A stretch of DNA of 64,000 nt from Methanobacteriota archaeon (lineage in GTDB: Archaea > Thermoplasmatota > E2 > DHVEG-1), in the NCBI GenBank assembly GCA_017885605.1, contig JAFNFT010000071.1:85519-149518 (forward strand), in the 5' to 3' direction. The position numbers and the translations under genes are program-made. The notes under the pieces were generated by a model. It saw nothing but the letters and a program-made list of their open reading frames with translations, searched no databases and had not been told where the DNA came from. Positions 3,322-46,907 of this stretch are shown here, one piece after another; position 1 is the stretch's first letter, and each line of letters begins with the position of its first letter.

Positions 3322-3351
3322 AAAATGATGTAAAAAAGGTTGTAATAAAGT

Positions 3352-4535: not shown

Positions 4536-4586
4536 AATATGAATAAGAGAAAGATGCAAAAAAATTATTGTTGATGGTGTTGTAAG

Positions 4587-5141: not shown

Positions 5142-5143
5142 AA

Positions 5144-14540: not shown

Positions 14541-15013
14541 AATAAAAATTTGAAAACAAAAAGTGAGATCACACCAAGAACAAAACTGTACCGAAGGCCT
14601 GAAGAAAGTTTACCATCCATCATGAACCCTCCGATCATACCTGCACCAATACCCTGTGTAAAAACAAATGAACTCAATGCGTATTTCAACGCCACGGGAT
14701 CCACTTTATTCATCATGACACCAGCCATTTCAACCGTGCTGCTCTGACTCTTGAAAAATGAGGCGAACAGCGTGTTATTAAGAATCATAATTATTCCGAG
14801 GAACACAAAAAAACTCATGATAATTACAACGGTATAGGTAGCCATTTCCGATTTTCTCTGCTCCTTAATATTATTAATTTGATTGATTTCTTTTGCCGCT
14901 GCTTTAAAAACCTTTGACGTCATCCCCCCCATTCTCAATCCTGTATTTATCGAAACAACTATTCTTTTGACAATAGGAGATCTCATCCGTTCAGCAAAAT
15001 TCTCAAACTTCAT
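13955..15013 (-). repeat. Segmental duplication copy A (pilin 5-prime ~590 bp + tadC 3-prime ~480 bp); copy B at ~16695-17745
   Basis: The pilin N-terminal ~95 codons are essentially identical between 14225-14520 and 16950-17245. The tadC 3-prime 477 bp (14537-15013) is ~90% identical to 17260-17740 by eye. Confidence 0.6.
14537..15013 (-). pseudogene. 5-prime-truncated duplicate of the tadC/flaJ-like gene (C-terminal 158 codons only); may be expressed as a small 3-4 TM protein
   Basis: MKFENFAERMRSPIVKRIVVSINTGLRMGG... aligns residue-for-residue with the last 158 aa of the 586-aa protein at 17260-19020 (KVFENFAERMRSAIIKRIVVSINTGLRMGG...). Confidence 0.5.
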
Positions 15014-15032
15014 TTTTTTTTATCTCGCCTCT

Positions 15033-17282
15033 TTACATTTTTTGGCATCTTGCATCAGCGCTCACGGGTGCGCCCTCGATAGTACCAGCATACCTTCCTA
15101 TACTGTAAAACTCATAATATCCCACCCCTTTGGGAAAGTTAAAACTCCAACTCCATGGACTATTTAAGTCAGGATTAGTATCACCTGTATAAATAATCCA
15201 GTTATGTCCTTCTCCTCCACCTATATATGTTTCTTCAGCTCCAGCTGAGCTATAAGATGGTTCTATTGCAATGCATTTTCTAACAAAAACATCATCAAAA
15301 GAAGCTGTTTCTCCCATGCTTCCTCCATTAAGAGCAAGGTAACCTGGACGACCACTTCTTGGCCATGAATTAAAGGCACCCGGCGTCCCACCAATATTCC
15401 AGACTCTTCCTCTGACATTTGTTCCATCATGATAGATTTCAAACCAATACCATGTTCCAAAAGACCATGCAGTTCGAGTATATGATGTTCCCCAGGCTAC
15501 ATGGTCATCTAAGAATTGTTCTGTCGTCTTGGTAACGAAATCATGAAACACATAATTGTAACTTTCACCATTAGCGGCACTAGTTTTAATGCTTAGACCT
15601 GCCCTTCCATCGGCATCTGTTCCAGCCTCTGGTCTCACTTTTGCTCTAATTGCATAATAATTGGATTGAGGAGCTGATGTTGCAATACATTTCTTAGGGT
15701 CGGCAGTTCCTGTGGATGTCTGTCTCATTATCCCGCCTGTTTCGCTCCAAGTGCCTTGGTATGTAGTCCATTTGCTTGCATCAATAGAATTATCGTCAAA
15801 GTTATCAAAGAAATTAAAGGTGTTAGTTCCATTACTAGCATTTGAAGCAGATGGATTGCCGTAATAGCAATAAATGCTGGTACTGCTATTCAAGCTGTCT
15901 TTTACTTCTACCCATACCTTTGCAAGTCTGTTTGGGGCTGTTCCGGATACATCTTCTACCCAGAAATCAAGCGAGGTTGTACCACTCTTATTAGTAAATC
16001 TTAAGTCTCCACCTATGTTTTTCCCGCTAGGAAAGTTTGATGAGTGTCCACCCAAATTAAAATATGCCCCTGAAACACCAGACGTTTCCCCTATCATTAA
16101 AAGCACTTGATAGTTAGGTCCAGCTCCAGCTTGACCAGTAATGTTAATCTTCTTTCTATAAATCCAATTAGCATCATACCAGTTCTCACTATCCCCCTCA
16201 CCAACTGTAGCATTTACATATATTTGATCAATGTAAACATCATTGCTATTATTTTGTGCATCACAACGGAATTTAATCTTCATATCAGATGGGAACGTAT
16301 AACTCGTTTCATTAATCCAAACAATTTCATAATAAAACTGATCGTTTACAAAATCAGTACCAGCAACAAAAGAAGCTACAGTCTGCCAAATAGCTCCATC
16401 ATAATACTCCACAAAAAAATCATGACCATCGCTCAGACCCTCAGATCGAAACCAGAAACTAATAGTAATACAAGTATAACCCGGTGAATGTACATCCACC
16501 CCATTTGTATGATAAAAAGACGATGCATTACCACCATTACCCTGTATATCTGCAGCTTTGCTTCCCTGATGAGCGTATGTACCACCTGTATAAAGAGAAC
16601 AATTCACTCCACCGTCACTGTAATTACCAAATCCTCCTTCAAAATCATCATATGTCAATGTAGTCCAATCCACGGTCCAATTATCATTACTCCAACGATA
16701 ATAAAGTGTAACGTTATTCAACCCAGGATCACCAATAGCATAAACAGTAAGTGGAGAAGATGTTTGATGGTAGGGACTAATTGTATCAACAGAAGTATCT
16801 AGTGAAGGAATAGTCGTTGTTTTTCCCTCCTGTAGAACTGTCATTATCATTATAGAATTGCTGTCTGTATCAATTACGGTAGCCTCGACTTGCAAATTTG
16901 TCATAGATGAATTGTTGTAGACAAGCTGCTCACCTATATCCCATCGATGATTTCCATTAGTATCATTTAAAAAAAATCCAACTGTATTACTAATCCTTGT
17001 TCCCCCTACGATAAATGAGACTGTTGCGTTTTGATCCAGTGAATCTCCACCACGATGTTCTAGTACTATATTACTCCCTTCAATTGATCCGACAATATCT
17101 ACAGAAGGTACCGACGGAGAAAATGGATACGACATAACAATGAAATACAATATGGAGAAAAGTGCTACACCTATCCCTACCATTAAAATAGCGCCAATGA
17201 CCTCAGAGACAGCACCATCCAGTTTTTTCCACTTTATTTTCACAGCCATCAACCACCCTTCAAAATACAAACTTAAAAACAA
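15033..17282 (-). CDS. Large pilin-like surface protein B (749 aa): type IV pilin N-terminal domain + LamG/DUF2341-like domains with an extra ~170-aa insert
   Basis: N-terminal 180 aa nearly identical to protein A. YCYYGNPSASNASNGTNTFNFFDNFDDNSIDASKWT is DUF2341/LamG-like. Conserved C-terminus YYEFYSIGRYAGTIEGAPVSADARC. Likely true start is MAVKIKWKK (~17249). Confidence 0.65.
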   Translation of the reverse strand: MFLSLYFEGWLMAVKIKWKKLDGAVSEVIGAILMVGIGVALFSILYFIVMSYPFSPSVPSVDIVGSIEGSNIVLEHRGGDSLDQNATVSFIVGGTRISNTVGFFLNDTNGNHRWDIGEQLVYNNSSMTNLQVEATVIDTDSNSIMIMTVLQEGKTTTIPSLDTSVDTISPYHQTSSPLTVYAIGDPGLNNVTLYYRWSNDNWTVDWTTLTYDDFEGGFGNYSDGGVNCSLYTGGTYAHQGSKAADIQGNGGNASSFYHTNGVDVHSPGYTCITISFWFRSEGLSDGHDFFVEYYDGAIWQTVASFVAGTDFVNDQFYYEIVWINETSYTFPSDMKIKFRCDAQNNSNDVYIDQIYVNATVGEGDSENWYDANWIYRKKINITGQAGAGPNYQVLLMIGETSGVSGAYFNLGGHSSNFPSGKNIGGDLRFTNKSGTTSLDFWVEDVSGTAPNRLAKVWVEVKDSLNSSTSIYCYYGNPSASNASNGTNTFNFFDNFDDNSIDASKWTTYQGTWSETGGIMRQTSTGTADPKKCIATSAPQSNYYAIRAKVRPEAGTDADGRAGLSIKTSAANGESYNYVFHDFVTKTTEQFLDDHVAWGTSYTRTAWSFGTWYWFEIYHDGTNVRGRVWNIGGTPGAFNSWPRSGRPGYLALNGGSMGETASFDDVFVRKCIAIEPSYSSAGAEETYIGGGEGHNWIIYTGDTNPDLNSPWSWSFNFPKGVGYYEFYSIGRYAGTIEGAPVSADARCQKM

Positions 17283-19020
17283 AAAGTGAAATCACACCAA
17301 GAACAAAACTGTACCGAAGCCCTGAAGAAAGTTTACCATCCATCATGAACCCCCCAATCATACCGGCACCAATACCTTGAGTAAAAACAAATGAACACAA
17401 CGCGTATTTCAATGCCACCGGATCGACCTTATTCATCATGGCACCAGCCATTTTCACGGTACTACTCTGACTCTTGAAAAATGAGGCGAACAGTGTATTA
17501 TTAAGTATCATAATTATTCCGAGGAACACAAAAAAACTCATGATAATTACAGTGGTATACGTAGACATCTCCGATTTTCTCTGCTCTTCAATATTATTAA
17601 TTTGATTGATTTCTTTTGCTGCTGCGATAAAAACCTTTGATGTCATCCCCCCCATCCTCAATCCGGTATTTATCGAGACAACTATTCTTTTGATGATGGC
17701 GGATCTCATTCGTTCAGCGAAATTCTCAAACACCTTTGTTACGGGAATACTCCAAGATAGCTCAGATTTCATTTTTTGTATTTCAGGGGTCAATCTTCCA
17801 TAACGGCCTTTTGATGAAATTTTTATTGCATCAAAAATGGTCATCCCTGAGGAGATACAGTTTCCCATTTCGACCACAAAATCTGGTAATCTTCGCTCAA
17901 TCTCACGCTGTTTTTGCGCTTGCTTATGACAATAAAAGGTAATAGGCCCTATGAAAACCAGGACGGACAGGAAAAAAACATCAAAAAAGAAGTAGGTGGT
18001 GAAATTCATATATTTGTAATAACTTAATACATAAATAATGCAGTAAAAAGAAAGCAATAAACCTGTTGAAAGAAGCAGAATTAAAATAAATGGTCTGTTT
18101 TTTTTATAAAAATCTTTCACTGAAGGTCTCTTCTTCGAATGAGGGTTTCTTATCTCTTCTATACTTGTTGATCGTATGAGAGCGTAATATCCACCATATG
18201 CTATGGGTAGAACAACGAACGAAAAAATAAACAAAATCTCTATAGTGAAACTTGAGGAACCACCAAAAAAACCCATCACAGAGATAATGATCACAAGAAA
18301 AATCGGAAACGCGACAAGCGTGGTGACAAATGTTTCTGCAAGAACCCCAAGAGTATCCAAGTTTTTCTTCCTTGCTAAAAATTCATCGGCCATGTACTGA
18401 TCTACAATGGTTGAAAGGTAAATATGAAGGTCACTACCTGATTGAATAGTACCGATTATCCCTTGGAGAAACGATTTGAATTTTTTTGAAGGAGTGTTTT
18501 CAAGGGCGTGTTTTAGCGCAGTAATCGTATCAATCCCCATGACATCGAGTTCTATGATGATTTTCTTTGCTTCTTGTTGTACTTCACCATAGATATCGAT
18601 TGTTGCAAAAGATCGAAAGATATCTGCGGGTGAAACACCCGCAATTGCCATGGTGCTGATAAAATTCACCGCATAAGGTAAGAATCTATCGATATTCGCG
18701 GCTCTTTTTTTGATATGAGAGTGCGGGATGTATTGACACATCACCCAGATGCTAAACGGCACAAGTGCAGGCAAAAGAATCGCAAGTAAGAGAGTATTTA
18801 ATGAAGGGAAAAAGAGATACAGGAGTAAAGATGGGATGATGGTGAGTATAAACCCCAGGAGCATTGTCATCAAAAACATCGAGAAGTACTCCTGGTATAA
18901 CATATTGATATCGGCTTGTTTTAATAGTATGTTTTTCTCTTGGAGCCGCTGTTTTGTTTTTATTGAAAAAAATCTATCAAATTTCCAGAGGCAGAAGTTC
19001 GAATATTTTGAGGATTTCAT
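17260..19020 (-). CDS. Type IV pilus / archaellum assembly membrane platform protein (FlaJ/TadC/PilC-like)
   Basis: 586-aa polytopic membrane protein with the typical FlaJ/TadC topology, immediately downstream of the secretion ATPase and overlapping it by 4 nt (ATGA). Confidence 0.7.
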   Translation of the reverse strand: MKSSKYSNFCLWKFDRFFSIKTKQRLQEKNILLKQADINMLYQEYFSMFLMTMLLGFILTIIPSLLLYLFFPSLNTLLLAILLPALVPFSIWVMCQYIPHSHIKKRAANIDRFLPYAVNFISTMAIAGVSPADIFRSFATIDIYGEVQQEAKKIIIELDVMGIDTITALKHALENTPSKKFKSFLQGIIGTIQSGSDLHIYLSTIVDQYMADEFLARKKNLDTLGVLAETFVTTLVAFPIFLVIIISVMGFFGGSSSFTIEILFIFSFVVLPIAYGGYYALIRSTSIEEIRNPHSKKRPSVKDFYKKNRPFILILLLSTGLLLSFYCIIYVLSYYKYMNFTTYFFFDVFFLSVLVFIGPITFYCHKQAQKQREIERRLPDFVVEMGNCISSGMTIFDAIKISSKGRYGRLTPEIQKMKSELSWSIPVTKVFENFAERMRSAIIKRIVVSINTGLRMGGMTSKVFIAAAKEINQINNIEEQRKSEMSTYTTVIIMSFFVFLGIIMILNNTLFASFFKSQSSTVKMAGAMMNKVDPVALKYALCSFVFTQGIGAGMIGGFMMDGKLSSGLRYSFVLGVISLFVFKFVF

Positions 19021-21029
19021 TTAGAACCGCCTTTTGCCTTTTCCAATACAACCTCTGGCTCTCGGCTATAGTCTGCTACAACCTTTCCGACTTCCTTATA
19101 CGAGCGCAGATTATTTTTTCTCATCCATTCCAATACAATAATTCTATTTTTAACCTCTGAAATGAGCTGCGCATCGCTCCATCCTTTCTTACTTTGAGTT
19201 CTATCAAGTAAGATGCTTTTTGCTTCTTTCTTAAAATGATCCTCTGATTCGGAAACCCATGAAAAAGGGATTGAAAAAATTAGTTTGTTCGTACTAGGCT
19301 CCATTTTTATTATTTCGATAACATTGGTGATTCTTCGAGCAGGTTTCCCATTTATCACAGTAGCTTTTAAAAACACGACAAGATTAAGGGAGATAAGAAG
19401 TGCTTTCGGCAAAGAAATAGGGGGATTCTCCAGCCTCTGAACCAACGTATGAATATCACTTGCATGAATTGTTGAATATGAAATATGACCAGTAGCCATC
19501 GCTTGGAAAAGAGCATAGGCTTCTTGCCCACGTATCTCACCTACGATTACAACTTGTGGCCGCTGACGCAGTGCAGCCCTAGTAAGATCAAACATATCAA
19601 TATCTTTACTAGTTTTATGTTCTGCAGATTGAGAAAAACCAGTTCTCGTAGTACTCGCTATCCAGTTCTCATGGGGGAGCATCAGTTCTCTGGTATCCTC
19701 TATGGAAAAAATCTTATATGCAGCAGGTAAAAAAAGTGCAAAAGCATTCAATGTGGATGTCTTCCCAGAAGCAGTACCCCCACAGAAGAGAATAGATGCA
19801 CCATTTTCAATGGCAAGCCAGAAATATGCCGCCATCTCCAATGACATCGTGCCGGTATTAATCAAATCAATTGGAGTGAAGGGATCCTCTCGAAATCTCC
19901 TAATGGTAAATGTTGAAAATGGCGTCACGGTTTTCGCCAACATTACCGATAGCCGAGACCCATCCGCAAGTTTCCCATCGATAATCGGTTCATAAATTGA
20001 GATTTGTTTACCGCAAATCTGAGCCAATTTCACCGCAAAAGAATCCAATTCATCAGGATTTTCAAAGACGATGTTGCTCTTTATCGATTCATATGTTTTA
20101 TGATAAATAAAAATAGGGATATTAGGACCGTCACAAGAAATATCCTCAATACCTTCGTCATGCATCAATATATCGATTTTACCATATCCTGTGAACTCTT
20201 GAAAAATATAGTAAAAGATTTTATCCTTGGAGATTTCGCTGAGTTTAATATGGCCATCAACAATAATTTTTTGTAATGATTCATCCAGCTTTATTGATTT
20301 TTCAACGGTGTTACTTTCGAAAACATCAATAGTGGAACGTAATTCAAACAACTCAAGGAGTTTGTTTTTTATTTCTTGTTCCTCTTTTTCCAGCGAAGGC
20401 TCATGTACCTCATAGACGTAGGTCTTACTATTTTTATCAAACTTGATTACCCGACTTCCAAGACCTTTCCATCCAAAACCTGTTCGTTCGTCGTCTGCCT
20501 TCTCGCTGCTTTTTTTCTGTAACCCTTGTTGATCGTTTGATACAAAATCTTCTGATGCATTTAGAGTTTTTCCCCTTTGTGGTATTGGTAATTCTTTGGT
20601 TTTTTCAGGTGGTTTCATTACTTGTTGTAATTTTTGTGGTGCCATTGATTCTTTTTGAACCCCTGCGTCATCGTTTTCTCCTATCAACCTCGTGCGGAAC
20701 TCTGAGTCATCCGTCTGGTCTATATTTGCATCTCTTGTTTTTATCCCAAGAATATTTTTTAGTTGTCGTTCCACAGAGGCCATAAATTTAAAATTAGGGT
20801 TGTCGGTGGTGGGAATATCTGAAATAACGTTTCCTGATTCAACGGTTTTTTCATTAAAAATATCCTTTGAACATGTAACAAGCTCAAATTCCTGAGGTTT
20901 TTCCTCTATTTTTCCCAGCATTTCCTCTTTTCGAAGTATTTTTATTATCTCAGGTTCGTCCTTCATTGAAACCTCCAAAAAACAACTTTTTGTATTTGGA
21001 GAAAACAGAAATCTTCTTGACAGTATCAA
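19017..21029 (-). CDS. Type IV pilus assembly ATPase (FlaI/TadA/GspE-VirB11 family) with a long acidic N-terminal extension
   Basis: Walker A FCGGTASGKTSTLNAF, Asp box/Walker B RPQVVIVGEIRGQEA, His box ATGHISYSTIHASD. The ~190 aa before the conserved core are low-complexity and acidic. Confidence 0.85.
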   Translation of the reverse strand: MILSRRFLFSPNTKSCFLEVSMKDEPEIIKILRKEEMLGKIEEKPQEFELVTCSKDIFNEKTVESGNVISDIPTTDNPNFKFMASVERQLKNILGIKTRDANIDQTDDSEFRTRLIGENDDAGVQKESMAPQKLQQVMKPPEKTKELPIPQRGKTLNASEDFVSNDQQGLQKKSSEKADDERTGFGWKGLGSRVIKFDKNSKTYVYEVHEPSLEKEEQEIKNKLLELFELRSTIDVFESNTVEKSIKLDESLQKIIVDGHIKLSEISKDKIFYYIFQEFTGYGKIDILMHDEGIEDISCDGPNIPIFIYHKTYESIKSNIVFENPDELDSFAVKLAQICGKQISIYEPIIDGKLADGSRLSVMLAKTVTPFSTFTIRRFREDPFTPIDLINTGTMSLEMAAYFWLAIENGASILFCGGTASGKTSTLNAFALFLPAAYKIFSIEDTRELMLPHENWIASTTRTGFSQSAEHKTSKDIDMFDLTRAALRQRPQVVIVGEIRGQEAYALFQAMATGHISYSTIHASDIHTLVQRLENPPISLPKALLISLNLVVFLKATVINGKPARRITNVIEIIKMEPSTNKLIFSIPFSWVSESEDHFKKEAKSILLDRTQSKKGWSDAQLISEVKNRIIVLEWMRKNNLRSYKEVGKVVADYSREPEVVLEKAKGGSK

Positions 21030-38422: not shown

Positions 38423-40216
38423 ATGCCAGTCGAATTTGTTGAACTAGCAAAGTTAATAGGTGGCGTTATTCTCCTCATTGTTCCAGGTTATCTCTGGAGT
38501 TTTATTTTATTTCCAAAAATCATGCATCTCGAAAGAATCGTGTTTGGGTTTGTATTGGACCTATGCGTACTTTCCTGTGGAATGTTTATTTTGAATGTCG
38601 TATTTGGGATAACCCTAACATATACAGTTATATGGGTGCTCCTTGCGTTTTACACCATTCCTGTTCTGATTATAATTATATATTGTTTATTAGTATTCAA
38701 ATTTGATTTTAAAAAACCAAGTTTTAAAGATTTTAAAAACCCCAAATTATTGTTACTTGTATTTGTCTTAGGGTTTACAGTGTTAATGATCTTTTTACCT
38801 CATCTTAAAGAAGGTTATTTTCTCCCGTTTCATGTTGATGAATGGGAGCACTGGAGTTATTCAAGAGCTGTGGCAGAATCTGGTTCTACTTCATTTGTTA
38901 ATCCTTACTTAGGGCAAGGAATTCTTCAGCCTCTTGAAATAGGATTTAACCTTGTCGTCTTAGGTGTTTCTTGGAGTTCTGGAAGTAATCTTGTCACTAT
39001 CTTTGTGTTTATGCCATCTCTTATTGCAATATTTACAAGCCTTGCAGCATTTAACATAGGCGAAAGAACAGAACGGAAATTTGGTCTTGAGGCAGCATTT
39101 TTTGTGGCATTGATTCCAACCACCTGCCGGATGATGGGGCCGTCTTTCTTTGTGCCGGTGGCGTTAGGATTGTTATTCATCGTACTTATCATCTGGATTT
39201 TACAGCAGAAAACATATCGAGCAATGCTGCTTATTCCTTTCATTATTTGGTGTATGTTTCTTATTCATCCACCCACCGCACTCGCTGGATTCATGGTGTG
39301 CATAATTTTTACCGTACTGTTTCTGTTTGAAAAGAAATATAAATTATCCCTGCTCGCTGCCGGATTATCTCTAATCCCCATAGGATTTGTGTTACTTCTT
39401 TCAACAAGATGGAATATGTCCATTCAAGATGTAGTCAAGGCGTTTCTTGGAGAAGGAAGATTTATGGATCTAGACCTTCCAAAAATCTGGATCTCCTTTG
39501 AACATATGGGCATAGTCATTTGGGTATTTTTTATCATTGGGGCATACTTTGCATTCAGTAAAGGAAAAACAACGGTGCGTGCCATAGGTCTTTTGGCTAT
39601 CGCATTTATTACACTCATTGGACTATATGACAAATTCAATTATGGCATACCAATCATGTATGAACGCTCGTTTTTGTATCTTTTTTTGATGGTGGCATTG
39701 ATGGCGGGTTGGGGATTGAGTGAACTGAAAAGAACCTTGGCTGAGAACTCAGAAAAATTTGTGCCAAAACGATATGGGGAGCTTTTGAAACACAACAATA
39801 TCATTATCTCTCTTGTAGTATGTCTCATCTTGGTGGCAACAACGGTTCCTGCTCATCTCAATATCCCCTATTACCATATGATAAATGAAGATGAATATGA
39901 AGCTTTCTCCTGGATTCATGATAATATCAAATCCTTTAGAGACGAAAATCATTCATACGATAGATGTGCCGTTGATCCATTTAAAGCATCACCATTTGTT
40001 GCAATATCGGGATTGTATATTGTCTCCTCTACGATGAGTCCACTTTATGGATATAGTTCGCACGCTGAGGTAGAACAGTTTCTGAATGGTAAATGCACTG
40101 ATACAAATTTTTTGTATAAATACCAAATTTCTGTGATTTATTCTCCAAGTTGTAACAATAAAAATTTCACTATCATATATCCAAATGTTTACCTGTATCC
40201 TGGATTGAATAAATAA
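38423..40216 (+). CDS. Polytopic membrane protein, putative GT-C-type glycosyltransferase (PMT/ArnT-like)
   Basis: 12+ hydrophobic helices. LPFHVDEWEHWSY sits in the first extracytoplasmic loop, as does the acidic DE motif of GT-C enzymes. No STT3 WWDYG motif seen, so probably not AglB. Confidence 0.4.
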   Translation: MPVEFVELAKLIGGVILLIVPGYLWSFILFPKIMHLERIVFGFVLDLCVLSCGMFILNVVFGITLTYTVIWVLLAFYTIPVLIIIIYCLLVFKFDFKKPSFKDFKNPKLLLLVFVLGFTVLMIFLPHLKEGYFLPFHVDEWEHWSYSRAVAESGSTSFVNPYLGQGILQPLEIGFNLVVLGVSWSSGSNLVTIFVFMPSLIAIFTSLAAFNIGERTERKFGLEAAFFVALIPTTCRMMGPSFFVPVALGLLFIVLIIWILQQKTYRAMLLIPFIIWCMFLIHPPTALAGFMVCIIFTVLFLFEKKYKLSLLAAGLSLIPIGFVLLLSTRWNMSIQDVVKAFLGEGRFMDLDLPKIWISFEHMGIVIWVFFIIGAYFAFSKGKTTVRAIGLLAIAFITLIGLYDKFNYGIPIMYERSFLYLFLMVALMAGWGLSELKRTLAENSEKFVPKRYGELLKHNNIIISLVVCLILVATTVPAHLNIPYYHMINEDEYEAFSWIHDNIKSFRDENHSYDRCAVDPFKASPFVAISGLYIVSSTMSPLYGYSSHAEVEQFLNGKCTDTNFLYKYQISVIYSPSCNNKNFTIIYPNVYLYPGLNK

Positions 40217-40235: not shown

Positions 40236-41330
40236 ATGAAGGATCATACATTAAGAATAGCAATAGTTGTCGGTACTCGCCCTGAAATAATCAAGATGTC
40301 TCCGATAATCCGTGAATGCAAAAGAAGAAAACAAGATTATTTTATCTTGCATACAGGGCAACATTATTCCTATAATATGGATCAGGTTTTTTTTGAACAA
40401 CTTGAGCTACCAAAACCAAAATACAATCTTGATGTCGGCTCTGGTACGCAAGCAGAGCAAACCGGAAGAGCCCTTATCGGAATTGAGCAAGTGTTACTAA
40501 AGGAAAAGCCAGATGTTGTATTGGTTGAAGGCGACACAAATACGGTTCTTGCAGGAGCTCTTGCAGCAACAAAGTTACACATAAAAGTTGGACATGTTGA
40601 GGCAGGTCTGAGATCCTATGACCGAACCATGCCTGAGGAGATCAATAGGGTTTTGACCGATCATATCTCAGATTTTTGTTTTGCACCAACGGAACAATCC
40701 CGACAAACGCTTCTCAGAGAAGGTATTGAAGAAAACAAGATTTTTGTCACGGGAAATACGATTGTCGATGCAGTGTATCAAAATCTTGAACTTGCACGTA
40801 AAAAGGCAAATATATTGGAACGACTTGGTCTCAAAGAAAAGGAATATTTTCTTGTTACTGTACATAGGCCGGAAAATGTCGATAACAAAGACCGCTTTCA
40901 AGGAATTCTTTCTGGTTTGCAGCAATTAGAAAAGGAATATAATATACCGGTCGTCTATCCTATTCATCCTCGTTCTCGCAAGAAGATGGATGAGTTTGGG
41001 CTGTTCGCAGACAACATTAATCTTGTTGATCCTCAAGATTTATTTGGTTTTTTACAACTTGAGCAAAATGCAAAAGTGGTTCTCACAGATTCCGGGGGTG
41101 TCCAGGAGGAGACGTGCATTCTAGGAAATCCCTGTGTAACCCTAAGAGATAATACTGAGAGACCAGAAACCATAGACGTAGGATCCAATGTTTTGGCAGG
41201 TACACATCCGGAGGATATTGTTAACGCGGTTTCAATGATGCTTCATAAAGAAAGAGAGGGAAGCAATCCGTTTGGTGATGGTCAATCTGGTAAAAAAATT
41301 GTTGATATATTGGAGAAAGAAATTACATGA
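40236..41330 (+). CDS. wecB: UDP-N-acetylglucosamine 2-epimerase (non-hydrolysing)
   Basis: IVVGTRPEIIKMSPI, HTGQH and HVEAGLRS with typical length. Canonical WecB/MnaA motifs. Confidence 0.9.
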   Translation: MKDHTLRIAIVVGTRPEIIKMSPIIRECKRRKQDYFILHTGQHYSYNMDQVFFEQLELPKPKYNLDVGSGTQAEQTGRALIGIEQVLLKEKPDVVLVEGDTNTVLAGALAATKLHIKVGHVEAGLRSYDRTMPEEINRVLTDHISDFCFAPTEQSRQTLLREGIEENKIFVTGNTIVDAVYQNLELARKKANILERLGLKEKEYFLVTVHRPENVDNKDRFQGILSGLQQLEKEYNIPVVYPIHPRSRKKMDEFGLFADNINLVDPQDLFGFLQLEQNAKVVLTDSGGVQEETCILGNPCVTLRDNTERPETIDVGSNVLAGTHPEDIVNAVSMMLHKEREGSNPFGDGQSGKKIVDILEKEIT

Positions 41331-42304
41331 ATAAAGAGAAAAAGATACTTGTTACTGGTGGAAGTGGTTTTATTGGTACGAATCTTGTGAATGAATTACG
41401 TAAACGTGGTCACAAGGTAATAGCGTGTGATTTATTGAATCACGAACTTCCGGATTATATCCGTTGTGATGTTCGAAATTTTCGTCAGTTGGAGCGGGTG
41501 TTTGATCGATTCGGATCTTTTGAATATTTGTACCATCTTGCTGCGGAGTACGGACGGTGGAACGGGGAGGATTACTATGAGAATTTGTGGGAAACGAACG
41601 TGATCGGGACGAAACACATGATTCGGCTGCAGGAGAAGCATAAATTCCAGATGATTTTCTTCTCGAGCGCAGAAGTATATGGAGATTTCATGGGAACGAT
41701 GAGAGAGAACGTCATGGAGGATGCCCTGATTAAAGAAGTGTATCAAATGAATGATTATGCGATTACGAAATGGGCTGGGGAGCTGATGTGTTTGAATTCC
41801 GCGAAGATGTTTGGAGCGGAGACCGTGCGAGTGCGACCCGTGAACTGTTATGGTCCGCATGAGCAGTATAATCCGTATCGTGGGTTCATTCCGAAATTCA
41901 TCTATCACGCGTTGCATGATAAATCGTATACGGTGTATTGTGGCCATACGCGCATTATTGATTATGTGGAGGACACGTGTCGTACGTTTGCGAACATTGT
42001 TGACAACTTTATTCCTGGTGAGGTGTACAATGTTGGTGGCCGCGAAGAATGGGAGCGAGATATCAAGGAATACTCTGATTTAGTACTCAAAGCGTGTGGG
42101 AAGGATGATTCGCTCGTAACGTACAAAGATGCGGAGCCGCATACTACAAAAGTGAAACATATGGATTTTTCAAAAGCAGAACACGATTTACATCATAACC
42201 CAAAGATAACTCCTGACGAAGGAATTCAAAGAACAGTGGATTGGATGAAATGGTTTTATCGATTTGATAGAAAAGAAAAGCCGGATCTTGAAACAATTGC
42301 CTAA
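41327..42304 (+). CDS. NAD-dependent nucleotide-sugar epimerase/dehydratase (extended SDR)
   Basis: VTGGSGFIGTNL Rossmann motif and catalytic YAITK. Visibly GC-richer than its neighbours. Confidence 0.8.
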   Translation: MNKEKKILVTGGSGFIGTNLVNELRKRGHKVIACDLLNHELPDYIRCDVRNFRQLERVFDRFGSFEYLYHLAAEYGRWNGEDYYENLWETNVIGTKHMIRLQEKHKFQMIFFSSAEVYGDFMGTMRENVMEDALIKEVYQMNDYAITKWAGELMCLNSAKMFGAETVRVRPVNCYGPHEQYNPYRGFIPKFIYHALHDKSYTVYCGHTRIIDYVEDTCRTFANIVDNFIPGEVYNVGGREEWERDIKEYSDLVLKACGKDDSLVTYKDAEPHTTKVKHMDFSKAEHDLHHNPKITPDEGIQRTVDWMKWFYRFDRKEKPDLETIA

Positions 42305-42330: not shown

Positions 42331-43389
42331 ATGGGAAGATTTAATGAATACAATGGTAAAACTATTTTAGTCACCGGTGGCGCAGGTTGCATTGGTGGCA
42401 ACCTGTGTAAAAAGCTATCAGAGCTCCATGCTCGCAACATCATCATTCTTGATAATTTATCATCAGCCTATGAATGGAATATACCTCAAGCAGACAACAT
42501 TTCTTTTGTCAAAGGAGATGTACTTTCTGATGAAGATCTCAAACGAGTGTTCAAAGAAAAACCAGACCATGTGTTTCATTTGGCCGCGCATTTCGCTAAT
42601 CAAAACAGTGTTGATAGCCCGGAAACAAATCTTCTTGTCAACGGCCTCGGCATCCTAAAGACACTGGAACATGCACAGCTCACCGGAGTAAAACGATTTG
42701 TGTACTCATCCTCAGGCTGTGGCGTGTATGGACTAGATTCACAGATGCCCTTTAAAGAACATGACATATCAATACACCTTCATACACCCTATCAAGTAAC
42801 AAAACTTCTTGGCGAACTCTACACAAATTATTTCCACAACCTCTACAACCTCCCCATCGTCAACGCACGGTTCTTCAACGTCTTTGGACCAGGTGAAGTC
42901 CCAGGGAAATATCGAAACGTGATTCCTAATTTTATGTACTGGGCAATGCATCATCAACCATTACCAATCACAGGAGATGGCAGCGAAACAAGGGATTGGA
43001 CCTATGTTAGTGACATCGTCAACGGACTTCTTGCAATGGGTGTGGTCGATGAAGCAATTGGTGAAGCAATAAATCTAGGATCAGCTACGGAAACTAAGGT
43101 TATCGATATGGCTCATCTGATCAATGATCTCACAGGAAACCCTAATGGCATCAAATACATTGAAAGACGGAACTGGGATGTAAAGACACGACTTCTTTCA
43201 TCAGTTGACAAAGCCAAAGATATCTTGGATTACAAGCCGCAAACATCCTTTGAAGCTGGTGCTGAACAACTGTATCAGTGGTTTGTTGAAAACTGGACGC
43301 TTATTCAAAAAAGTGCAGAGTTTGCAGGGTATAAGAAACAACAATGGGAACACACTACGCCTCAAAAAACCCAAGAGGCTATCGCATAG
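42331..43389 (+). CDS. NAD-dependent nucleotide-sugar epimerase/dehydratase (extended SDR)
   Basis: VTGGAGCIGGNL and catalytic YQVTK. Confidence 0.8.
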   Translation: MGRFNEYNGKTILVTGGAGCIGGNLCKKLSELHARNIIILDNLSSAYEWNIPQADNISFVKGDVLSDEDLKRVFKEKPDHVFHLAAHFANQNSVDSPETNLLVNGLGILKTLEHAQLTGVKRFVYSSSGCGVYGLDSQMPFKEHDISIHLHTPYQVTKLLGELYTNYFHNLYNLPIVNARFFNVFGPGEVPGKYRNVIPNFMYWAMHHQPLPITGDGSETRDWTYVSDIVNGLLAMGVVDEAIGEAINLGSATETKVIDMAHLINDLTGNPNGIKYIERRNWDVKTRLLSSVDKAKDILDYKPQTSFEAGAEQLYQWFVENWTLIQKSAEFAGYKKQQWEHTTPQKTQEAIA

Positions 43390-43466
43390 ATGAATATATG
43401 TTACAAGTTGAACATCGTAATACCTATTGATTTAAGTTTCAATGGTTCAAAGTCTACTTAGATTGG

Positions 43467-43486
43467 AGTGGCAAATTTTTGCCACT
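43467..43486 (+). terminator. Inverted repeat agtggcaaa-tt-tttgccact 78 bp after the epimerase stop
   Basis: Read directly. Lies at the left boundary of the AT-rich methyltransferase insert. Confidence 0.3.
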
Positions 43487-43568
43487 TCCATTATTTAAAT
43501 TTATACAAAGATTTAAAAATGGAAATTATGCTAGAATGATAAATATTTTTTTTAAATACAATGGTTGA

Positions 43569-44528
43569 ATGGTCGATTTTATGAACAAAGTTGCTAGAAA
43601 TTTGCAAAAAAGCTTTTTATTATTTCATAAAATTGGGCTTAAGGTTGGATTGCAATTACTTCCCAATCATTACTATTCATCATATGCTGATATAAATTAC
43701 CTAGAAAGAAACAAGGAACTCTGGGCAAAAAGATCAGATTTGCCAGGCATTAAAATAAATCTCAAAAATCAAGTGAAAAACTTAAAAAAGATTTGTTTAC
43801 CTTTTAAAGAAGAGTATATCGGTAACAAAGTGTTTCTAGGCGCGGTAAAAGGTGATTGCGGTTCGGGTTTTGGATATATCGAAGCGCAAGTATTGCATTC
43901 GATTATTCGATATTACAAACCAAAAAAAATCATTGAAATTGGTAGTGGTGTTTCTACATATTGTTCATTAAATGCAATTCACTTAAATAAATGTGATACT
44001 GATTATAAATTTAATATGACTTGTATAGAGCCCAATCCTAGTAAAAAGTTACAATTAGAAAAAAAAGTCGAACTTATTAAAAATGATGTTCAAAAAGTAC
44101 CATTGGATTTATTCGAGAATTTGCAGGAAGACGATCTATTATTCATTGATTCTACTCATACCGTAAAACCTGGATCTGATGTAAACTATTTGATTCTTGA
44201 AGTTCTACCAAGACTTCAACATGGTGTAATTATCCATTTTCATGACATATTTTTTCCTTACGATTATCAAAGAGATGTACTCCAAACTTTTTTTCAATGG
44301 AATGAAAATTCACTACTTAGATCTTACCTAACATATAATAATACTATTGAGATTTTATTTTGTTTATCTATGTTACATTATGAAGCTAGAGATGCTCTAA
44401 AAGAAGTGTTCCCAGAATACGTCCCACAAAAGGATAAAAACGGACTGGTGGATGATTATTATAAACCTTTTCAGAAAATCAAAGAACATTTTCCTTCATC
44501 AATTTATTTGAAAGTAAATAAGACATAG
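43569..44528 (+). CDS. Class I SAM-dependent methyltransferase (TylF/CmcI-like O-methyltransferase fold)
   Basis: Motif I IIEIGSGVSTY and acidic motif LLFIDSTHT. Very AT-rich relative to the upstream genes. Confidence 0.6.
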   Translation: MVDFMNKVARNLQKSFLLFHKIGLKVGLQLLPNHYYSSYADINYLERNKELWAKRSDLPGIKINLKNQVKNLKKICLPFKEEYIGNKVFLGAVKGDCGSGFGYIEAQVLHSIIRYYKPKKIIEIGSGVSTYCSLNAIHLNKCDTDYKFNMTCIEPNPSKKLQLEKKVELIKNDVQKVPLDLFENLQEDDLLFIDSTHTVKPGSDVNYLILEVLPRLQHGVIIHFHDIFFPYDYQRDVLQTFFQWNENSLLRSYLTYNNTIEILFCLSMLHYEARDALKEVFPEYVPQKDKNGLVDDYYKPFQKIKEHFPSSIYLKVNKT

Positions 44529-44529
44529 A

Positions 44530-44815
44530 GATTTGCCAGCGCAACAGATGCAAGAGTCATCGGCATGGCAAATAGAGTCAATGAGCTCATCGCAAATCAA
44601 ACAAGCATCATCTACACTAAAAGACGTAACTGGGATGTGAAAAAACGACTTATTTCATCAGTTGACAAAGTCAAAGACATCTTGAATTACAAGTCACAAA
44701 CATCATTTGAAGATGGTGTTTAACAACTGTATCCGTGGTTTACAAACAACTGGAATAATATTGAGGAATCTGCTGAGTTTCTCAAGTATCTGAAAAATCA
44801 ATGGGAAAAGAATAT
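44530..44815 (+). pseudogene. Decayed 3-prime remnant of an NAD-dependent epimerase/dehydratase gene, homologous to the C-terminus of 42331-43389, with an in-frame stop
   Basis: ...ELIANQTSIIYTKRRNWDVKKRLISSVDKVKDILNYKSQTSFEDGV*QLYPWFTNNWNNIEESAEFLKYLKNQWEK aligns with ...AHLINDLTGNPNGIKYIERRNWDVKTRLLSSVDKAKDILDYKPQTSFEAGAEQLYQWFVENWTLIQKSAEFAGYKKQQWEH. TAA at ~44720. No start or N-terminal part. Confidence 0.6.
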
Positions 44816-45999
44816 TGATAGAGGTGAGATGGTTGACATCAAAAAAAGATGTTGATGTATTTTCAGATGTAAAACGTTGCAGTAAATGTATTTTACCCCA
44901 AACTTTTCCAGGTATATCCTTTGACAAGAACGGTGTGTGTAAGTATTGTCATGACTGGGAACCTGTAAAAGTATTAGGTGAAAAAGAACTTGAAAAGAAA
45001 CTTCAGGAATATAAAAACAAAGGAGTAGAGTATGATGTTTTGGTCCCGTTTAGCGGTGGTAGGGATAGCTCATTTGTGTTGCATCAAATGGTTAAAAAAT
45101 ATCATATGAGAACTTTAGCAATTACTGTTGATAGTGGTTTTTTAACAAAAGAAGGTTTTCAGAACATAGAAACGGTTACCAAAGCATTACATGTTGATCA
45201 TGTATGGTTAAAAAATGAAGGAAAAATTGATACTTCGAAGCAGAACTGTAAAATTAAATTTCATGGCTGGCTAAAAAAACCATCGATTAACACTATTGTT
45301 CCTGTGTTGAACTCTGGTGATAAAACGATGAATCTTCAGATGTTTCAGTATGCTCATGATCATAATATTCCTGTGGTCATGGGTGGAAACAACATCGGGA
45401 ACAGTATTTTTGAGCAGGAGCATTGGAAGACCGGTTTTCTCGGTGTTTTCCCCAATGAACGAGGATACTACGGACCATCTGATCGGTTGAAGTTATCGTT
45501 TCTTTTTGGAGTCGAATATCTCCGAAATCCTGCGAACTTTAGTTTTCCTATTTTTAAAGAGTATTTCAAAGGAGCAAGTGTATATTTCTTTGAATCGTTT
45601 CTCAAACCAAACGATGTTGACACGCTAGGGTTCTACGACTATATCTACTGGGATGAAAAAAAGATACTGTCTACCATTCTGAAGGAAGCCGGTTGGAAAG
45701 GGGCGGCGGATACAACCGCAACTTGGCGGGTTGATGATTCCGCATATCCGTTAATTAACTACATGTATCATACACTCGTAGGTTTTACAGAGCATGATGA
45801 ATTCTATAGTAAGATGATTCGTGAGGGTCAGCTAACACGTAAAGAAGCATTGGAGCGATGTCTCTCAGATCAGAAACCCCGGTTGCCATCGCTTCATAGA
45901 ACGTTTGGGGAGTTGGACGTCACGAAAGAGCAGGTGGATGACTTACTCGAAAAATATAGGACGAAATTGCTAGGGCAGATCAAGGGAGATTACCGATGA
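44815..45999 (+). CDS. N-acetyl sugar amidotransferase (PP-loop ATP pyrophosphatase, WbuX/WbpG-like)
   Basis: N-terminal CxxC...CxxC (CSKCILP...CKYCHDW). PP-loop VPFSGGRDSSFVL. Matches the architecture of the LPS N-acetyl sugar amidotransferase family. Confidence 0.6.
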   Translation: MIEVRWLTSKKDVDVFSDVKRCSKCILPQTFPGISFDKNGVCKYCHDWEPVKVLGEKELEKKLQEYKNKGVEYDVLVPFSGGRDSSFVLHQMVKKYHMRTLAITVDSGFLTKEGFQNIETVTKALHVDHVWLKNEGKIDTSKQNCKIKFHGWLKKPSINTIVPVLNSGDKTMNLQMFQYAHDHNIPVVMGGNNIGNSIFEQEHWKTGFLGVFPNERGYYGPSDRLKLSFLFGVEYLRNPANFSFPIFKEYFKGASVYFFESFLKPNDVDTLGFYDYIYWDEKKILSTILKEAGWKGAADTTATWRVDDSAYPLINYMYHTLVGFTEHDEFYSKMIREGQLTRKEALERCLSDQKPRLPSLHRTFGELDVTKEQVDDLLEKYRTKLLGQIKGDYR

Positions 46000-46907
46000 A
46001 AATCGTCATACCAGGTGGTGCTGGGTTTGTTGGGCGAAATCTTGTCAGAATGCTCTATTCGACGAATCAAACCATGTCTGAAGTTATTATCTTCGATATC
46101 AACCAGATTAATTTAGAGTATGTCAAAAAGTATGGTGTTCACGCAGTCAATGCAGATCTCTCAAAACAAGGAGATTGGAATCATGAATTTGAGAATGCAG
46201 ACATGGTCATTAATCTTGCAGCTCAATTGTCTTCATCCAACCATGAACCATTCCATAGGAACAACGTATTGACTACGAAAAATATCATAGACGCAATGAA
46301 AAAAGCAAATGTTCAAAGAATCATTCATTTTAGTTCAGCAGCAGTTCTCTCTCTCTGGCAAGATGACTATGCTCGTACGAAAAATGAAGGGGAAAATCTC
46401 GTAAAGTCAAGTGATCTTGACTACTGTATTCTCCAACCCTCGATTATGTACGGACCAACCGATGAAACAAATATCGGCTATCTGATCAATTTTGCAAAAA
46501 AGATACCGGTTTTTCCCATACCCGGACAAGGAAAGTGGCCCAGACAACCTCTCTATATTGATGATGTATGTCGTTTGATTTTGAGAATTATTGAGGATTT
46601 CCCTCATAACGAGACTCTGAGTATCAATGGACAAGAGGTCATTTATTTCAAGGATATGGTCAAAATCGTCCTTCAAGAACTTGGAGGAATCAAATTTCGG
46701 GTTTTTTTGCCGATACGTCTTTTTACGGTCCTCATGATGATCTACCAGAAGGTAAAAGGGGTCACCGAATTTACCCCTGATCAAGTACGAGCTCTTACGA
46801 CCGTCGAGACCTTTCCAGAATACCCCTGGTGGGATACATTTGATATCCCAGTCACATCATTTGAGCAAGGTGTCAGAACAATGCTAACTCACAAGGAGAT
46901 GATATAA
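45996..46907 (+). CDS. NAD-dependent epimerase/dehydratase family protein (short form)
   Basis: IPGGAGFVGRNL and YARTK. Overlaps the upstream gene by 4 nt. Confidence 0.7.
   Translation: MKIVIPGGAGFVGRNLVRMLYSTNQTMSEVIIFDINQINLEYVKKYGVHAVNADLSKQGDWNHEFENADMVINLAAQLSSSNHEPFHRNNVLTTKNIIDAMKKANVQRIIHFSSAAVLSLWQDDYARTKNEGENLVKSSDLDYCILQPSIMYGPTDETNIGYLINFAKKIPVFPIPGQGKWPRQPLYIDDVCRLILRIIEDFPHNETLSINGQEVIYFKDMVKIVLQELGGIKFRVFLPIRLFTVLMMIYQKVKGVTEFTPDQVRALTTVETFPEYPWWDTFDIPVTSFEQGVRTMLTHKEMI

Follow-up and report, generated by a model that had tools for sequence, protein, structure and literature searches.

The window, the 64,000 nucleotides of archaeal DNA that were analyzed, contains a pseudogene remnant, a non-functional decayed copy of the 3' end of the epimerase gene epi5. 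The intact epi5 gene is located upstream, and the two copies are separated by an AT-rich spacer and by a gene encoding a methyltransferase (MT) (Table 1). The remnant, referred to below as the stub, is probably the scar of a 3'-end, or 'C-terminal', displacement that affected a single epi5 gene. All of the relatives used for comparison were metagenome contigs of uncultured archaea.

Table 1. Features of the window discussed in the text.
Feature	Position	Strand	Basis and remarks
epi2, UDP-GlcNAc 2-epimerase	40236..41330	+	Pfam Epimerase_2, E 1.7e-122; opens the conserved module epi2-epi4-epi5
epi4, SDR NAD-dependent epimerase/dehydratase	41327..42304	+	Pfam PF01370; syntenic in relatives
epi5, intact SDR epimerase/dehydratase	42331..43389	+	Pfam PF01370, E 1.4e-51; closes the conserved left arm
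Copy A of the direct repeat	43096..43350	+	Local alignment and repeat search; part of epi5 homologous to the stub
Tail A of epi5 (..EHTTPQKTQEAIA*)	43339..43389	+	Homology to L028 and L069 stops at 43338 (blastn end points)
AT-rich spacer, 179 nt, GC 0.246	43390..43568	+	GC content; would have arrived with MT
Hairpin, 10-pair stem	43465..43488	+	Folding
MT, class I SAM methyltransferase, full length	43569..44528	+	Methyltransf_24; alternative start at 43581
Stub region 1, codons ~248-288	44529..44650	+	Older, heavily decayed 5' third; starts at the proposed illegitimate junction 44528/44529
Stub regions 2-3	44651..44815	+	Younger, probably overwritten later; contain the window-specific TAA (44721-44723)
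PP-loop N-acetyl-sugar amidotransferase-like gene	44824..45999	+	Start at 44815, 44824, or 44833; opens the window-type right arm
epi8, SDR epimerase family	45996..46907	+	Pfam; right arm; syntenic in L017, L031, L032, and L033

Local alignment of the 3' end of epi5 (43096-43350) with positions 44552-44807 revealed 197 identities out of 253 (77.9%). The score of this alignment, 201, was far above chance, as 200 shuffles gave 21.5 ± 2.3 with a maximum of 29. A direct-repeat search returned the segments 43084-43357 and 44541-44814 (274 nt, 74% identical without gaps, spacing of 1457 nt). The homology begins within approximately 6 to 9 nt of the TAG stop codon of MT (44526-44528) and is maintained in one reading frame, the phase of 44529, for about 95 codons devoid of any frameshift. 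These codons align residue by residue with positions 248-341 of the epimerase, a 352-residue SDR enzyme; the stub lacks both its Rossmann fold and its catalytic region. A single in-frame stop codon is present (TAA, 44721-44723), at a position occupied by GAA in every other copy. Sequencing error was considered as the origin of this codon and rejected because the TAA was recovered in at least five independent assemblies, as part of an identical stub in L001, L002, L004, and L005 and within a 40-mer spanning it in L003. The four elements described by the initial annotation, namely the repeat, the remnant interrupted by a TAA, the AT-rich MT, and the hairpin, were all confirmed at the positions given or a few bases away. 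A protein search with the stub matched other stubs only (P0001 and P0002) and no intact parent. In L017, L018, and L019, the frame of the stub is open (79-92 aa in L017 and L019), and the ATG of the small open reading frame is the conserved Met260 of the epimerase. The last bases of the stub overlap the ribosome-binding and start region of the next gene, which encodes the amidotransferase-like protein.

Comparison of the window with L017 gave a dN/dS of 0.94 for the stub and a nucleotide divergence of 5.6%; the flanking genes displayed dN/dS values of 0.12-0.38 and dS values of 0.030-0.066. In region 1, 25 substitutions were common to all three stub lineages at positions where three intact genes agree, and they fell on residues that are invariant, or nearly so, in 121 homologs. 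Together, the dN/dS ratio, a divergence close to the dS values of these neighbors, the replacement of invariant residues, and the TAA indicate that the stub evolved neutrally. The decay was uneven along the stub, since shared derived changes numbered 25 in region 1 versus none in regions 2-3 (Fisher p = 3e-10), the latter containing 8-9 changes private to the window. Shared derived changes affected approximately 25% of region 1, as compared to a neutral divergence of approximately 5% between the window and L017, indicating that the stub has persisted for far longer than the time elapsed since these two lineages split.

Retention of the stub for a function, as a small protein, as the promoter or ribosome-binding site of the amidotransferase operon, or as a silent cassette for gene conversion of epi5, is an unlikely explanation of this persistence. 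The private changes of the window are located in the part that is supposed to be useful, and the segment is not conserved at the nucleotide level in distant epi5 genes. Although the open frame in three relatives, the overlap with the start of the amidotransferase gene, and the stub-like bases detected in epi5 of L017 (see below) would fit a functional role, as would the long persistence itself, the dN/dS of 0.94 and the stop codon in the middle of the window copy argue for neutrality, and the ATG of the small open reading frame merely reflects conservation of Met260 in the epimerase.

The two copies are nearly identical over a segment of about 90 nt (43200-43290 and 44655-44745). The presence in this segment of an embedded conserved DNA element, such as a promoter or a recombination site, was considered and rejected since the average identity of distant epi5 genes over this segment, 0.57-0.71, was not above that of the rest of the gene.

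The initial annotation had proposed that two tandem epimerase paralogs were present in the ancestor and that MT replaced most of the second, leaving its 3' end. A 3' remnant beside an intact homolog is the leftover expected from such a replacement, but none of approximately 45 related loci contained two epi5 copies, the extra copy being found only as the stub of L017, L018, and L019. In 12 related loci, a lone epi5 lay directly against the amidotransferase gene (gaps, 18-182 nt), and a single uninterrupted epi5 was present at the site in the insert-free loci L028, L029, L030, L069, and L022 and in 11 further loci. Four of these (L028, L029, L030, and L069) are colinear with the window over 32674/36651-43338 and contain one epi5, no MT, no stub, and other genes after epi5. 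Comparison with related genomes did not reveal the intact second epimerase, and the sister lineages are single-copy, the homology to the window stopping at 43338 in L028 and L069. The alignment scores of the spacer located upstream from MT were at the level of shuffled sequences, revealing no 5' epimerase remnant. In addition, the intact gene (tail A) and the stubs end in tails of distinct types, each of them natural to this epimerase family, tail A being also present in P0130, P0134, P0135, P0142, P0144, and others. The existence of distinct natural tail types suggests that two alleles were joined by recombination; the intact epi5 and the stub look like two such alleles rather than the products of a local duplication. 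Based on these comparisons, replacement of a paralog appears very improbable, and displacement of the 3' end of a single epi5 is the simpler reading.

The order epi2-epi4-epi5 recurs in more than 15 related loci, and epi5 is 75-88% identical to many archaeal homologs. Alignment with L028 revealed blocks of 93-98% nucleotide identity alternating with blocks of 57-77%, a pattern from which we conclude that epi5 itself is a recombination mosaic. At sites where epi5 of the window differs, epi5 of L017 has stub-like bases. We also considered that tail A might be encoded by the inserted DNA, as would be the case for an integrated circle carrying an internal gene fragment. This was rejected because tail A is a natural C-terminus in many homologs.

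The product of the gene located between the two copies matched Methyltransf_24 (PF13578) over residues 122-227 (E 6.6e-13; 49.9 bits for a gathering cut-off of 26.3), and searches of PDB and NCBIfam with its sequence returned no match. The AlphaFold model of MT (pLDDT 90.2, pTM 0.90) has the predicted Rossmann-like methyltransferase fold. Its top PDB matches were all class I methyltransferases, although distant (TM ≤0.38, 10-19% identity), and included the sugar O-methyltransferases MeT1, CalS11, and SpnK. Based on the gene neighborhood, MT is probably a glycan or sugar O-methyltransferase, most likely acting on a sugar in the cell-surface glycan that the island produces. MT is very AT-rich, as initially noted, since its GC content (0.297) and GC3 (0.228) are the lowest among the 38 open reading frames of at least 250 aa in the window; the GC content of epi5 is 0.42. 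The nearest non-self homologs of MT are approximately 60% identical. This low GC content relative to epi5 and the distance to the nearest homologs support the view that MT and the spacer form a compositionally foreign insert. In L024, L025, and L027, which harbor the nearest MT homologs, we found no shared flanks and no neighboring epimerase gene.

The spacer is 96-98% identical in L017 and L019 but resembles neither epi5 nor the corresponding spacers of relatives, and seven contigs break within it. The epi5 transcript probably ends in the spacer, the hairpin and a U-tract being the candidate site, and the promoter of MT is probably located there as well. The hairpin reported by the initial annotation is real: the minimum free energy of 43440-43510 is -16.9 kcal/mol versus -8.6 ± 2.5 for shuffled sequences (z = -3.3), and pairing is retained with all three stem substitutions found in L017 and L019. 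A TATA-like motif, TTTTAAATA, located at about 43550, is a candidate promoter element for MT. The insert-specific DNA amounts to 1190 nt, and MT is its sole gene. No transposase or integrase gene, terminal inverted repeat, short target-site duplication, or attC/att site was detected around MT. The only inverted repeats were short AT-rich matches, and the flanking direct repeat consists of approximately 250 nt of the target gene, not of a short duplication. Neither tRNA genes nor Rfam matches were detected in the window.

Reading downstream, the locus consists of an intact epi5 with an alternative 3' end, cargo, and an orphaned 3' end in the same orientation. In the displacement that we favor, a DNA segment would have recombined with the resident locus in the ancestor of the window, L017, L018, and L019. 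The incoming segment would have comprised the 3' part of another epi5 allele, with a type A tail, the 179-nt spacer, and the foreign MT gene. The left join would have been a homologous crossover within epi5, and the right join a single illegitimate event immediately after the stop codon of MT, in the vicinity of codons 248-250 of the resident gene. The junction is located at most 9 nt past the usual stop position of the MT homologs, with which the N- and C-termini of MT agree. The event would have left the epimerase intact, added MT, and moved the resident 3' end to a downstream position, where it became an orphan truncated on its 5' side; the neutral evolution of this orphan is documented above. 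A stub-free donor arrangement, in which this spacer and MT come after a tail-A epi5, was not found among the loci compared, nor was this MT (>61% identity) found outside the stub-bearing lineage; in L064, the one locus with tail A that was examined, epi5 is followed by other genes.

The same structure could have arisen from a linear fragment (3' part of epi5 with tail A, spacer, and MT) circularized by end-joining and integrated, as in the Campbell model, by a single homologous crossover in the 3' part of epi5. This route would place a copy of the homologous segment on either side of the insert, in agreement with the direct repeat observed. Circularization followed by a single crossing-over is a documented fate of linear DNA in E. 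coli (PMC3240628). However, after so much decay its product is indistinguishable from that of one-sided illegitimate recombination, and no circular element, replication gene, or integration gene was seen in the window. We give this route a low probability.

The genes that follow epi5 differ between relatives, which contain at least five different gene sets at this position. These are MT-stub-amidotransferase in the window and L017, MT-stub-GT4 in L019, a GT4 set in L028, an ATP-grasp/deacetylase/DegT set in L069, Methyltransf_11-amidotransferase in L032, and small open reading frames with a toxin-antitoxin in L064. The amidotransferase of the window scored 154.4 bits against NCBIfam TIGR03573 (WbuX), below the curated cut-off of 203.2, and the best match was restricted to the N-terminal half. 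It is a related PP-loop enzyme and at most a putative WbuX member. Since the homology to L028 and L069 stops at 43338 and various gene sets follow, the proposal that this site is a hot-spot for exchange is well supported by the comparison of relatives, as is its identification as the boundary of a replacement glycan island.

Locus L019 indicates how the stub itself took part in exchange. Its spacer, MT, and stub region 1 are 96% identical to those of the window, and they are followed by an L028-type right arm. Comparison of L019 with L028 revealed 63.9% identity in stub region 1 versus 95-96% in regions 2-3 and the following spacer. This combination argues for a single origin of the insertion followed by a swap of the right arm. 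Because live epi5 genes and regions 2-3 of the orphan were still alike, the orphan provided the left crossover site for replacement of the downstream glycan block, an event documented in the lineage of L019 and presumed for that of the window. This replacement would have overwritten the 3' two-thirds of the orphan, and the window copy would later have gained its TAA. The uneven decay of the stub counts against displacement to the extent that it calls for at least two later overwriting events, and hence for a longer history.

Exchange of right arms also bears on a mirror image of the displacement, in which the resident locus was epi5 (tail A)-spacer-MT and an imported glycan block, carrying a 5'-truncated donor epi5, was joined illegitimately after the stop codon of MT. 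This course of events leads to an identical structure through an equal number of events, right arms have demonstrably been exchanged at the site, and donors with epi5 directly upstream from the amidotransferase gene are common. However, it merely defers the question of how MT came to follow epi5, and no epi5-MT arrangement devoid of the stub was found with this MT. Region 1 is moreover common to lineages with two different right arms, implying that the stub is older than at least one of these arms. We consider the mirror image to be plausible but rather unlikely.

More speculatively, the orphan tail might be a retained 'landing pad', a site beyond the intact gene at which about 150 nt match live epi5 alleles almost perfectly. 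Its persistence and 'refreshing' would then reflect second-order selection for exchangeability of the glycan. The stub-like bases of L017 epi5 would be explained by occasional donation of sequence from the orphan to the live gene. If this were true, whole downstream glycan blocks could be exchanged without endangering either the essential epimerase or MT. We regard this proposal as quite doubtful.

Displacement of 3' ends, leaving orphaned 3' ends, was reportedly described by Jackson and colleagues in 2009 for rhs, CDI, and T6SS effector-immunity loci. As in these systems, a conserved 5' part would have been kept in the epi5 locus, a 3' end would have come in together with cargo, and the old 3' end is found downstream as a truncated orphan. 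The likeness extends to the proposed mechanism, which combines anchoring by homology at one end with an illegitimate join at the other. Kirchberger et al. (2017; PMC5361080) put forward this architecture and mechanism for rhs and T6SS effector loci. In contrast to these loci, the displaced gene encodes a metabolic sugar epimerase rather than a polymorphic toxin, and the cargo is MT instead of an immunity gene. There is also one orphan and no array, the orphan is neutral with no evident use, and the host is an uncultured archaeon.

Homology-facilitated illegitimate recombination is said to have been reported in 2002 by de Vries and Wackernagel and by Prudhomme and colleagues. The proposed event is similar in that foreign DNA would have been joined by homology at one end only and inserted beside a partly duplicated or deleted target. 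The process is defined in a later article (Amarir-Bouhram et al., 2011; PMC3240628). Unlike this process, which was demonstrated by experiments on transformable bacteria and on conjugation of E. coli, the event described here was deduced from its end product alone, in an archaeon.

Replacement flexible genomic islands have reportedly been found in Alteromonas, and O-antigen or capsule loci can be switched via recombination in conserved flanking genes. The epi5 locus resembles replacement flexible islands since the conserved flank ends at a fixed gene, different glycan sets follow, and the flanking gene is a mosaic. It differs from ordinary replacement by double homologous crossover, which leaves no scar, as the site would record one illegitimate event and the reuse of a pseudogene as a crossover anchor. 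Archaeal N-glycan (agl) clusters contain a WbuX-like amidotransferase and methyltransferases, as exemplified by AglXYZ and AglV of Methanococcus maripaludis; Jones and colleagues are said to have worked on such a cluster in 2012. Nucleotide-sugar epimerases/dehydratases, a PP-loop amidotransferase, one or more methyltransferases, and many GT4 glycosyltransferases are similarly found in one archaeal cluster here, although this likeness is one of gene content, with an amidotransferase below the WbuX cut-off and an MT devoid of sequence matches in NCBIfam or PDB.

The type of event described here is ordinary and already known, orphaned 3' ends and replacement islands being well documented in bacteria, and current views are unchanged. 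For annotation, positions 44529-44815 should carry the label of a pseudogene fragment, and the open reading frame of 52 aa annotated in some assemblies should not be counted as a gene. The locus places the left boundary of the island at the end of epi5 (43338), with a precision of a few bases. An unrelated MT occupies the same slot in one related lineage, which hints that methylation of the sugar made by this pathway has been repeatedly selected. The locus would record one illegitimate insertion that added MT, and indicates that a dead gene fragment can later act as a homologous anchor for replacement of a downstream block. It thus provides a clean and datable example of the rebuilding of a surface-glycan island in uncultured archaea.

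The genes between 37 and 64 kb of the window lie on one strand and form a glycan-biosynthesis cluster. The initial annotation described a methyltransferase gene (MT) lying beside a decayed second 3' end of the upstream epimerase gene epi5, and this observation was confirmed as a whole. Positions 43096–43350 of epi5 and 44552–44807 of the remnant, referred to as the stub, are 77.9% identical over 253 nt, with an alignment score of 201 versus 21.5 ± 2.3 for shuffled sequences. A repeat search recovered the epi5 3' end and the stub as a 274-nt direct repeat with a spacing of 1457 nt. The stub is read from 44529 in one frame matching residues 248–341 of epi5, with no frameshift and a single in-frame TAA (44721–44723). 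A sequencing error was ruled out as the source of this stop codon since four independent assemblies carried the identical TAA-bearing stub and a fifth contained the 40-mer spanning the TAA. DNA specific to the insert (43339–44528) comprises the epi5 tail, the spacer, and MT, and is bordered on both sides by epi5 direct repeats of ~250 nt.

Features of the glycan-biosynthesis cluster (37–64 kb of the window).
Feature	Coordinates	Remark
GT2 glycosyltransferase		Within the cluster
Unknown protein	38423–40216	597 aa
epi2	40236–41330	UDP-GlcNAc 2-epimerase
epi4	41327–42304	SDR epimerase/dehydratase
epi5	42331–43389	SDR epimerase/dehydratase
MT	43569–44528	Methyltransf_24 methyltransferase
Stub	44529–44815	Orphaned epi5 3' end; region 1, 44529–44650; regions 2–3, 44651–44815
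PP-loop amidotransferase-like gene	About 44824–45999	WbuX-like, score under curated cut-off
epi8	45996–46907	SDR gene
Many GT4 glycosyltransferases		Within the cluster

The 597-aa protein had no Pfam or NCBIfam match; counterparts of 595, 618, and 542 aa are conserved at the corresponding position of the left module in loci L028, L064, and L069, respectively. Outside the cluster, the window contains archaeal type IV pilin genes and an ATPase and membrane-platform gene pair, with a type IV pilus locus at 12789–21029 (minus strand) encoding two Pilin_N/DUF2341 proteins and T2SSF-like and T2SSE-like products. PAS/MEDS/KaiC histidine kinases are unusually dense across 1354–31848, one multi-PAS protein reaching 1715 aa. 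This gene content identifies the host as an archaeon.

The remnant had been attributed to a second epimerase paralog largely replaced by MT. A scan with the amidotransferase yielded 33 loci from metagenomes and 4 from genomes, 12 of which carried a single epi5 homolog directly abutting the amidotransferase gene (gaps of 18 to 182 nt), usually with epi2 and epi4 upstream. The closest lineages lacking MT, reached by an epi5 protein search and cluster look-up, harbored one epi5 each followed by wholly different genes, and were colinear with the window up to 43338 (from 32674 for L028 and from 36651 for L069). Among the relatives compared, an extra epi5 fragment was found only in L017, L018, and L019. 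Since relatives carry a single epi5 and the spacer upstream of MT contained nothing recognisable as the 5' end of an epimerase, replacement of a paralog was left without support. C-terminal tails of several natural types occur in the epimerase family. The intact epi5 of the window ends in tail A (..KKQQWEHTTPQKTQEAIA), as do P0130, P0134, P0135, P0142, and P0144. Sister lineages end in tail B (..YLKNTW.SKKKSIME.ER), as does the L019 stub, same stop codon included, and the stubs of the window and L017 display a third type resembling P0136 and P0143. As judged from sequence, the tails of the intact gene and of the stub look like two alleles and not a local duplicate. In L069 (9586–10642 of a 712-kb ENA contig), epi5 is split into ORFs of 135 and 213 aa, either because long-read assembly introduced a false frameshift or because the gene truly is a pseudogene. 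In L051 (4927–5953), a truncated epi4 (residues 5–237) is joined straight to an epi5 3' fragment (residues 204–331) upstream of the amidotransferase gene, which looks like a deletion fusing two SDR genes.

We infer that the MT-stub architecture is the product expected of 3'-end displacement of a single epimerase gene. One homologous crossover inside epi5 would account for the left side, and one illegitimate join of the MT stop codon to codon ~248–250 of the resident epi5 for the right side. The outcome would be an intact epi5 with a new tail and cargo, the old tail being shifted downstream. MT is complete at both ends, the stub junction lying at most 9 nt past the usual stop position. Orphaned 3' ends of T6SS effector and rhs loci have the same architecture, for which the mechanism proposed is homology-facilitated illegitimate recombination (PMC5361080). 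PMC3240628 describes this process and, as an alternative, circularisation followed by a single crossover. The MT segment may have entered a resident locus consisting of epi5 and the downstream glycan-gene block (right arm), a right arm carrying a truncated epi5 may have entered a resident epi5-MT locus, or a circular intermediate may have taken part in the founding event; the product is identical for all three. No donor arrangement for the MT segment was found among the MT homologs, cluster members, and tail-A locus checked. Searches of the insert and window gave no transposase or integrase, no terminal inverted repeats, and neither a tRNA nor a known RNA element.

A GC and codon-position check verified that MT is AT-rich, with GC (0.297) and GC3 (0.228) the lowest among the 38 ORFs of at least 250 aa. 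The family is very large (6588 matches), and the best matches beyond its own lineage were ~60% identical and came from assorted archaeal and bacterial contigs. The nearest homologs (~60%) are lone genes on other archaeal contigs (L024, 6001–7044; L025, 6001–6963; L027, 3528–4457), neighbored by fragments of genes (151 aa of an ABC ATPase, parts of GT4 genes, and 141 aa of an integrase) as well as by small ORFs and extended non-coding gaps. Sequence searches of NCBIfam and PDB gave no match. The AlphaFold model was confident (pLDDT 90.2), and all its PDB matches were distant class I methyltransferases (TM ≤ 0.38), including the sugar O-methyltransferases MeT1, CalS11, and SpnK. Gene context suggests that MT O-methylates a surface-glycan sugar.

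The spacer preceding MT (179 nt) has a GC content of 0.246, versus 0.42 for epi5. The hairpin reported upstream of MT proved real (43465–43488, 10-pair stem); positions 43440–43510 fold with a minimum free energy of −16.9 kcal/mol, a z of −3.3 relative to shuffled sequences. In the few sequences available (L017/L019), three stem substitutions all preserved pairing as RNA (G.U to A-U, A-U to G.U, and G-C to G.U). The spacer also contains an imperfect 31-nt direct repeat (43420–43450 and 43539–43569, 71% identity), both copies ending in CAATGGTT(C/G)AA and the second reaching up to the MT start codon. Seven near-identical metagenome contigs from different samples (L003, L004, L009, L010, L014, L015, and L016) begin or end within the spacer (43389–43548), which may reflect co-existing junction variants or a coverage drop across the AT-rich hairpin region.

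L017 has the gene order of the window, with 93% overall identity. Between these lineages, the stub had a dS of 0.057, a dN of 0.054, and a dN/dS of 0.94, versus a dS of 0.030–0.066 and a dN/dS of 0.12–0.38 for flanking genes; its raw divergence (5.6%) equalled the neutral rate. The stub remains an uninterrupted ORF of 79–92 aa in L017, L018, and L019, the ATG of this ORF simply being Met260, a conserved epimerase residue. Replacements common to all stubs affect N248, L249, G250, D259, T268, and G269, which are (nearly) invariant in 121 functional homologs. The substitution pattern indicates that the stub is a neutrally evolving pseudogene.

L019 is ~96% identical to the window through epi5 tail A, the spacer, MT, and the first third of the stub; starting with the last part of the stub, it matches the L028-type right arm and not the amidotransferase gene. 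L019 and L028 were 63.9% identical in region 1; the corresponding values were 95.8% (region 2), 94.9% (region 3), 95.2% (spacer following the stub), and 87.6% (next gene). Counted at positions identical in three intact genes, derived substitutions common to the three stub lineages numbered 25 in region 1 and zero in regions 2–3 (Fisher p = 3 × 10⁻¹⁰). These comparisons indicate that the MT-stub junction arose once. Region 1 is old: its shared derived change amounts to ~25%, versus a neutral divergence of ~5% separating the window from L017. Replacement of downstream blocks overwrote the remainder of the stub, as shown for L019 and inferred for the window lineage; the left crossover lay at the point from which the stub is again well matched to live epi5 genes. 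A conserved DNA element keeping regions 2–3 similar was rejected since more distant epi5 genes show no unusual conservation in this part. In the window lineage, the overwritten part has since acquired 8–9 private changes, including the TAA. At ~43253–43261, the epi5 of L017, the stubs, and L028 read GATGGTGTT, and the window epi5 reads GCTGGTGCT; the presence of GATGGTGTT in the L017 epi5 could have arisen if the live gene underwent gene conversion with the stub or with an L028-like allele.

The proposal that the locus is an exchange hot-spot gained strong support, at least six arrangements following epi5 in relatives: MT-stub-amidotransferase (window, L017, and L018), MT-stub-GT4 (L019), a GT4 set (L028/L029/L030), an ATP-grasp/deacetylase/PHP/DegT set (L069), small ORFs with a toxin-antitoxin pair (L064), and, in L031 and L032, an unrelated methyltransferase of the Methyltransf_11 type occupying the exact MT slot between epi5 and the amidotransferase gene, without a stub. 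L031 and L032 are the nearest relatives whose right arm is of the window type, and their Methyltransf_11-type gene (266 aa) lies at 5043–5843 in L032 and at ~2630–3579 in L031. In L033, a 267-aa Methyltransf_24 protein (2674–3477) is encoded between epi2 and an epi4-like gene, and a UDP-sugar dehydrogenase gene (4508–5824) takes the place of epi5 before the amidotransferase gene. Comparison with L028 revealed epi5 to be a mosaic, blocks of 93–98% identity alternating with blocks of 57–77%. The dS between the window and L017 was very uneven (epi2, 0.84; epi8, 0.20; epi5, 0.054; range of 0.03–0.11 for epi4, epi5, MT, and the amidotransferase gene), indicating that there must be several recombination breakpoints within the island. 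This replacement island has its left boundary at the end of epi5.

The replaced-paralog reading should give way to one in which the 3' end of the single epimerase gene was displaced and the orphan was afterwards reused as an anchor for recombination. The locus would be a tidy archaeal instance of a phenomenon already known in bacteria.
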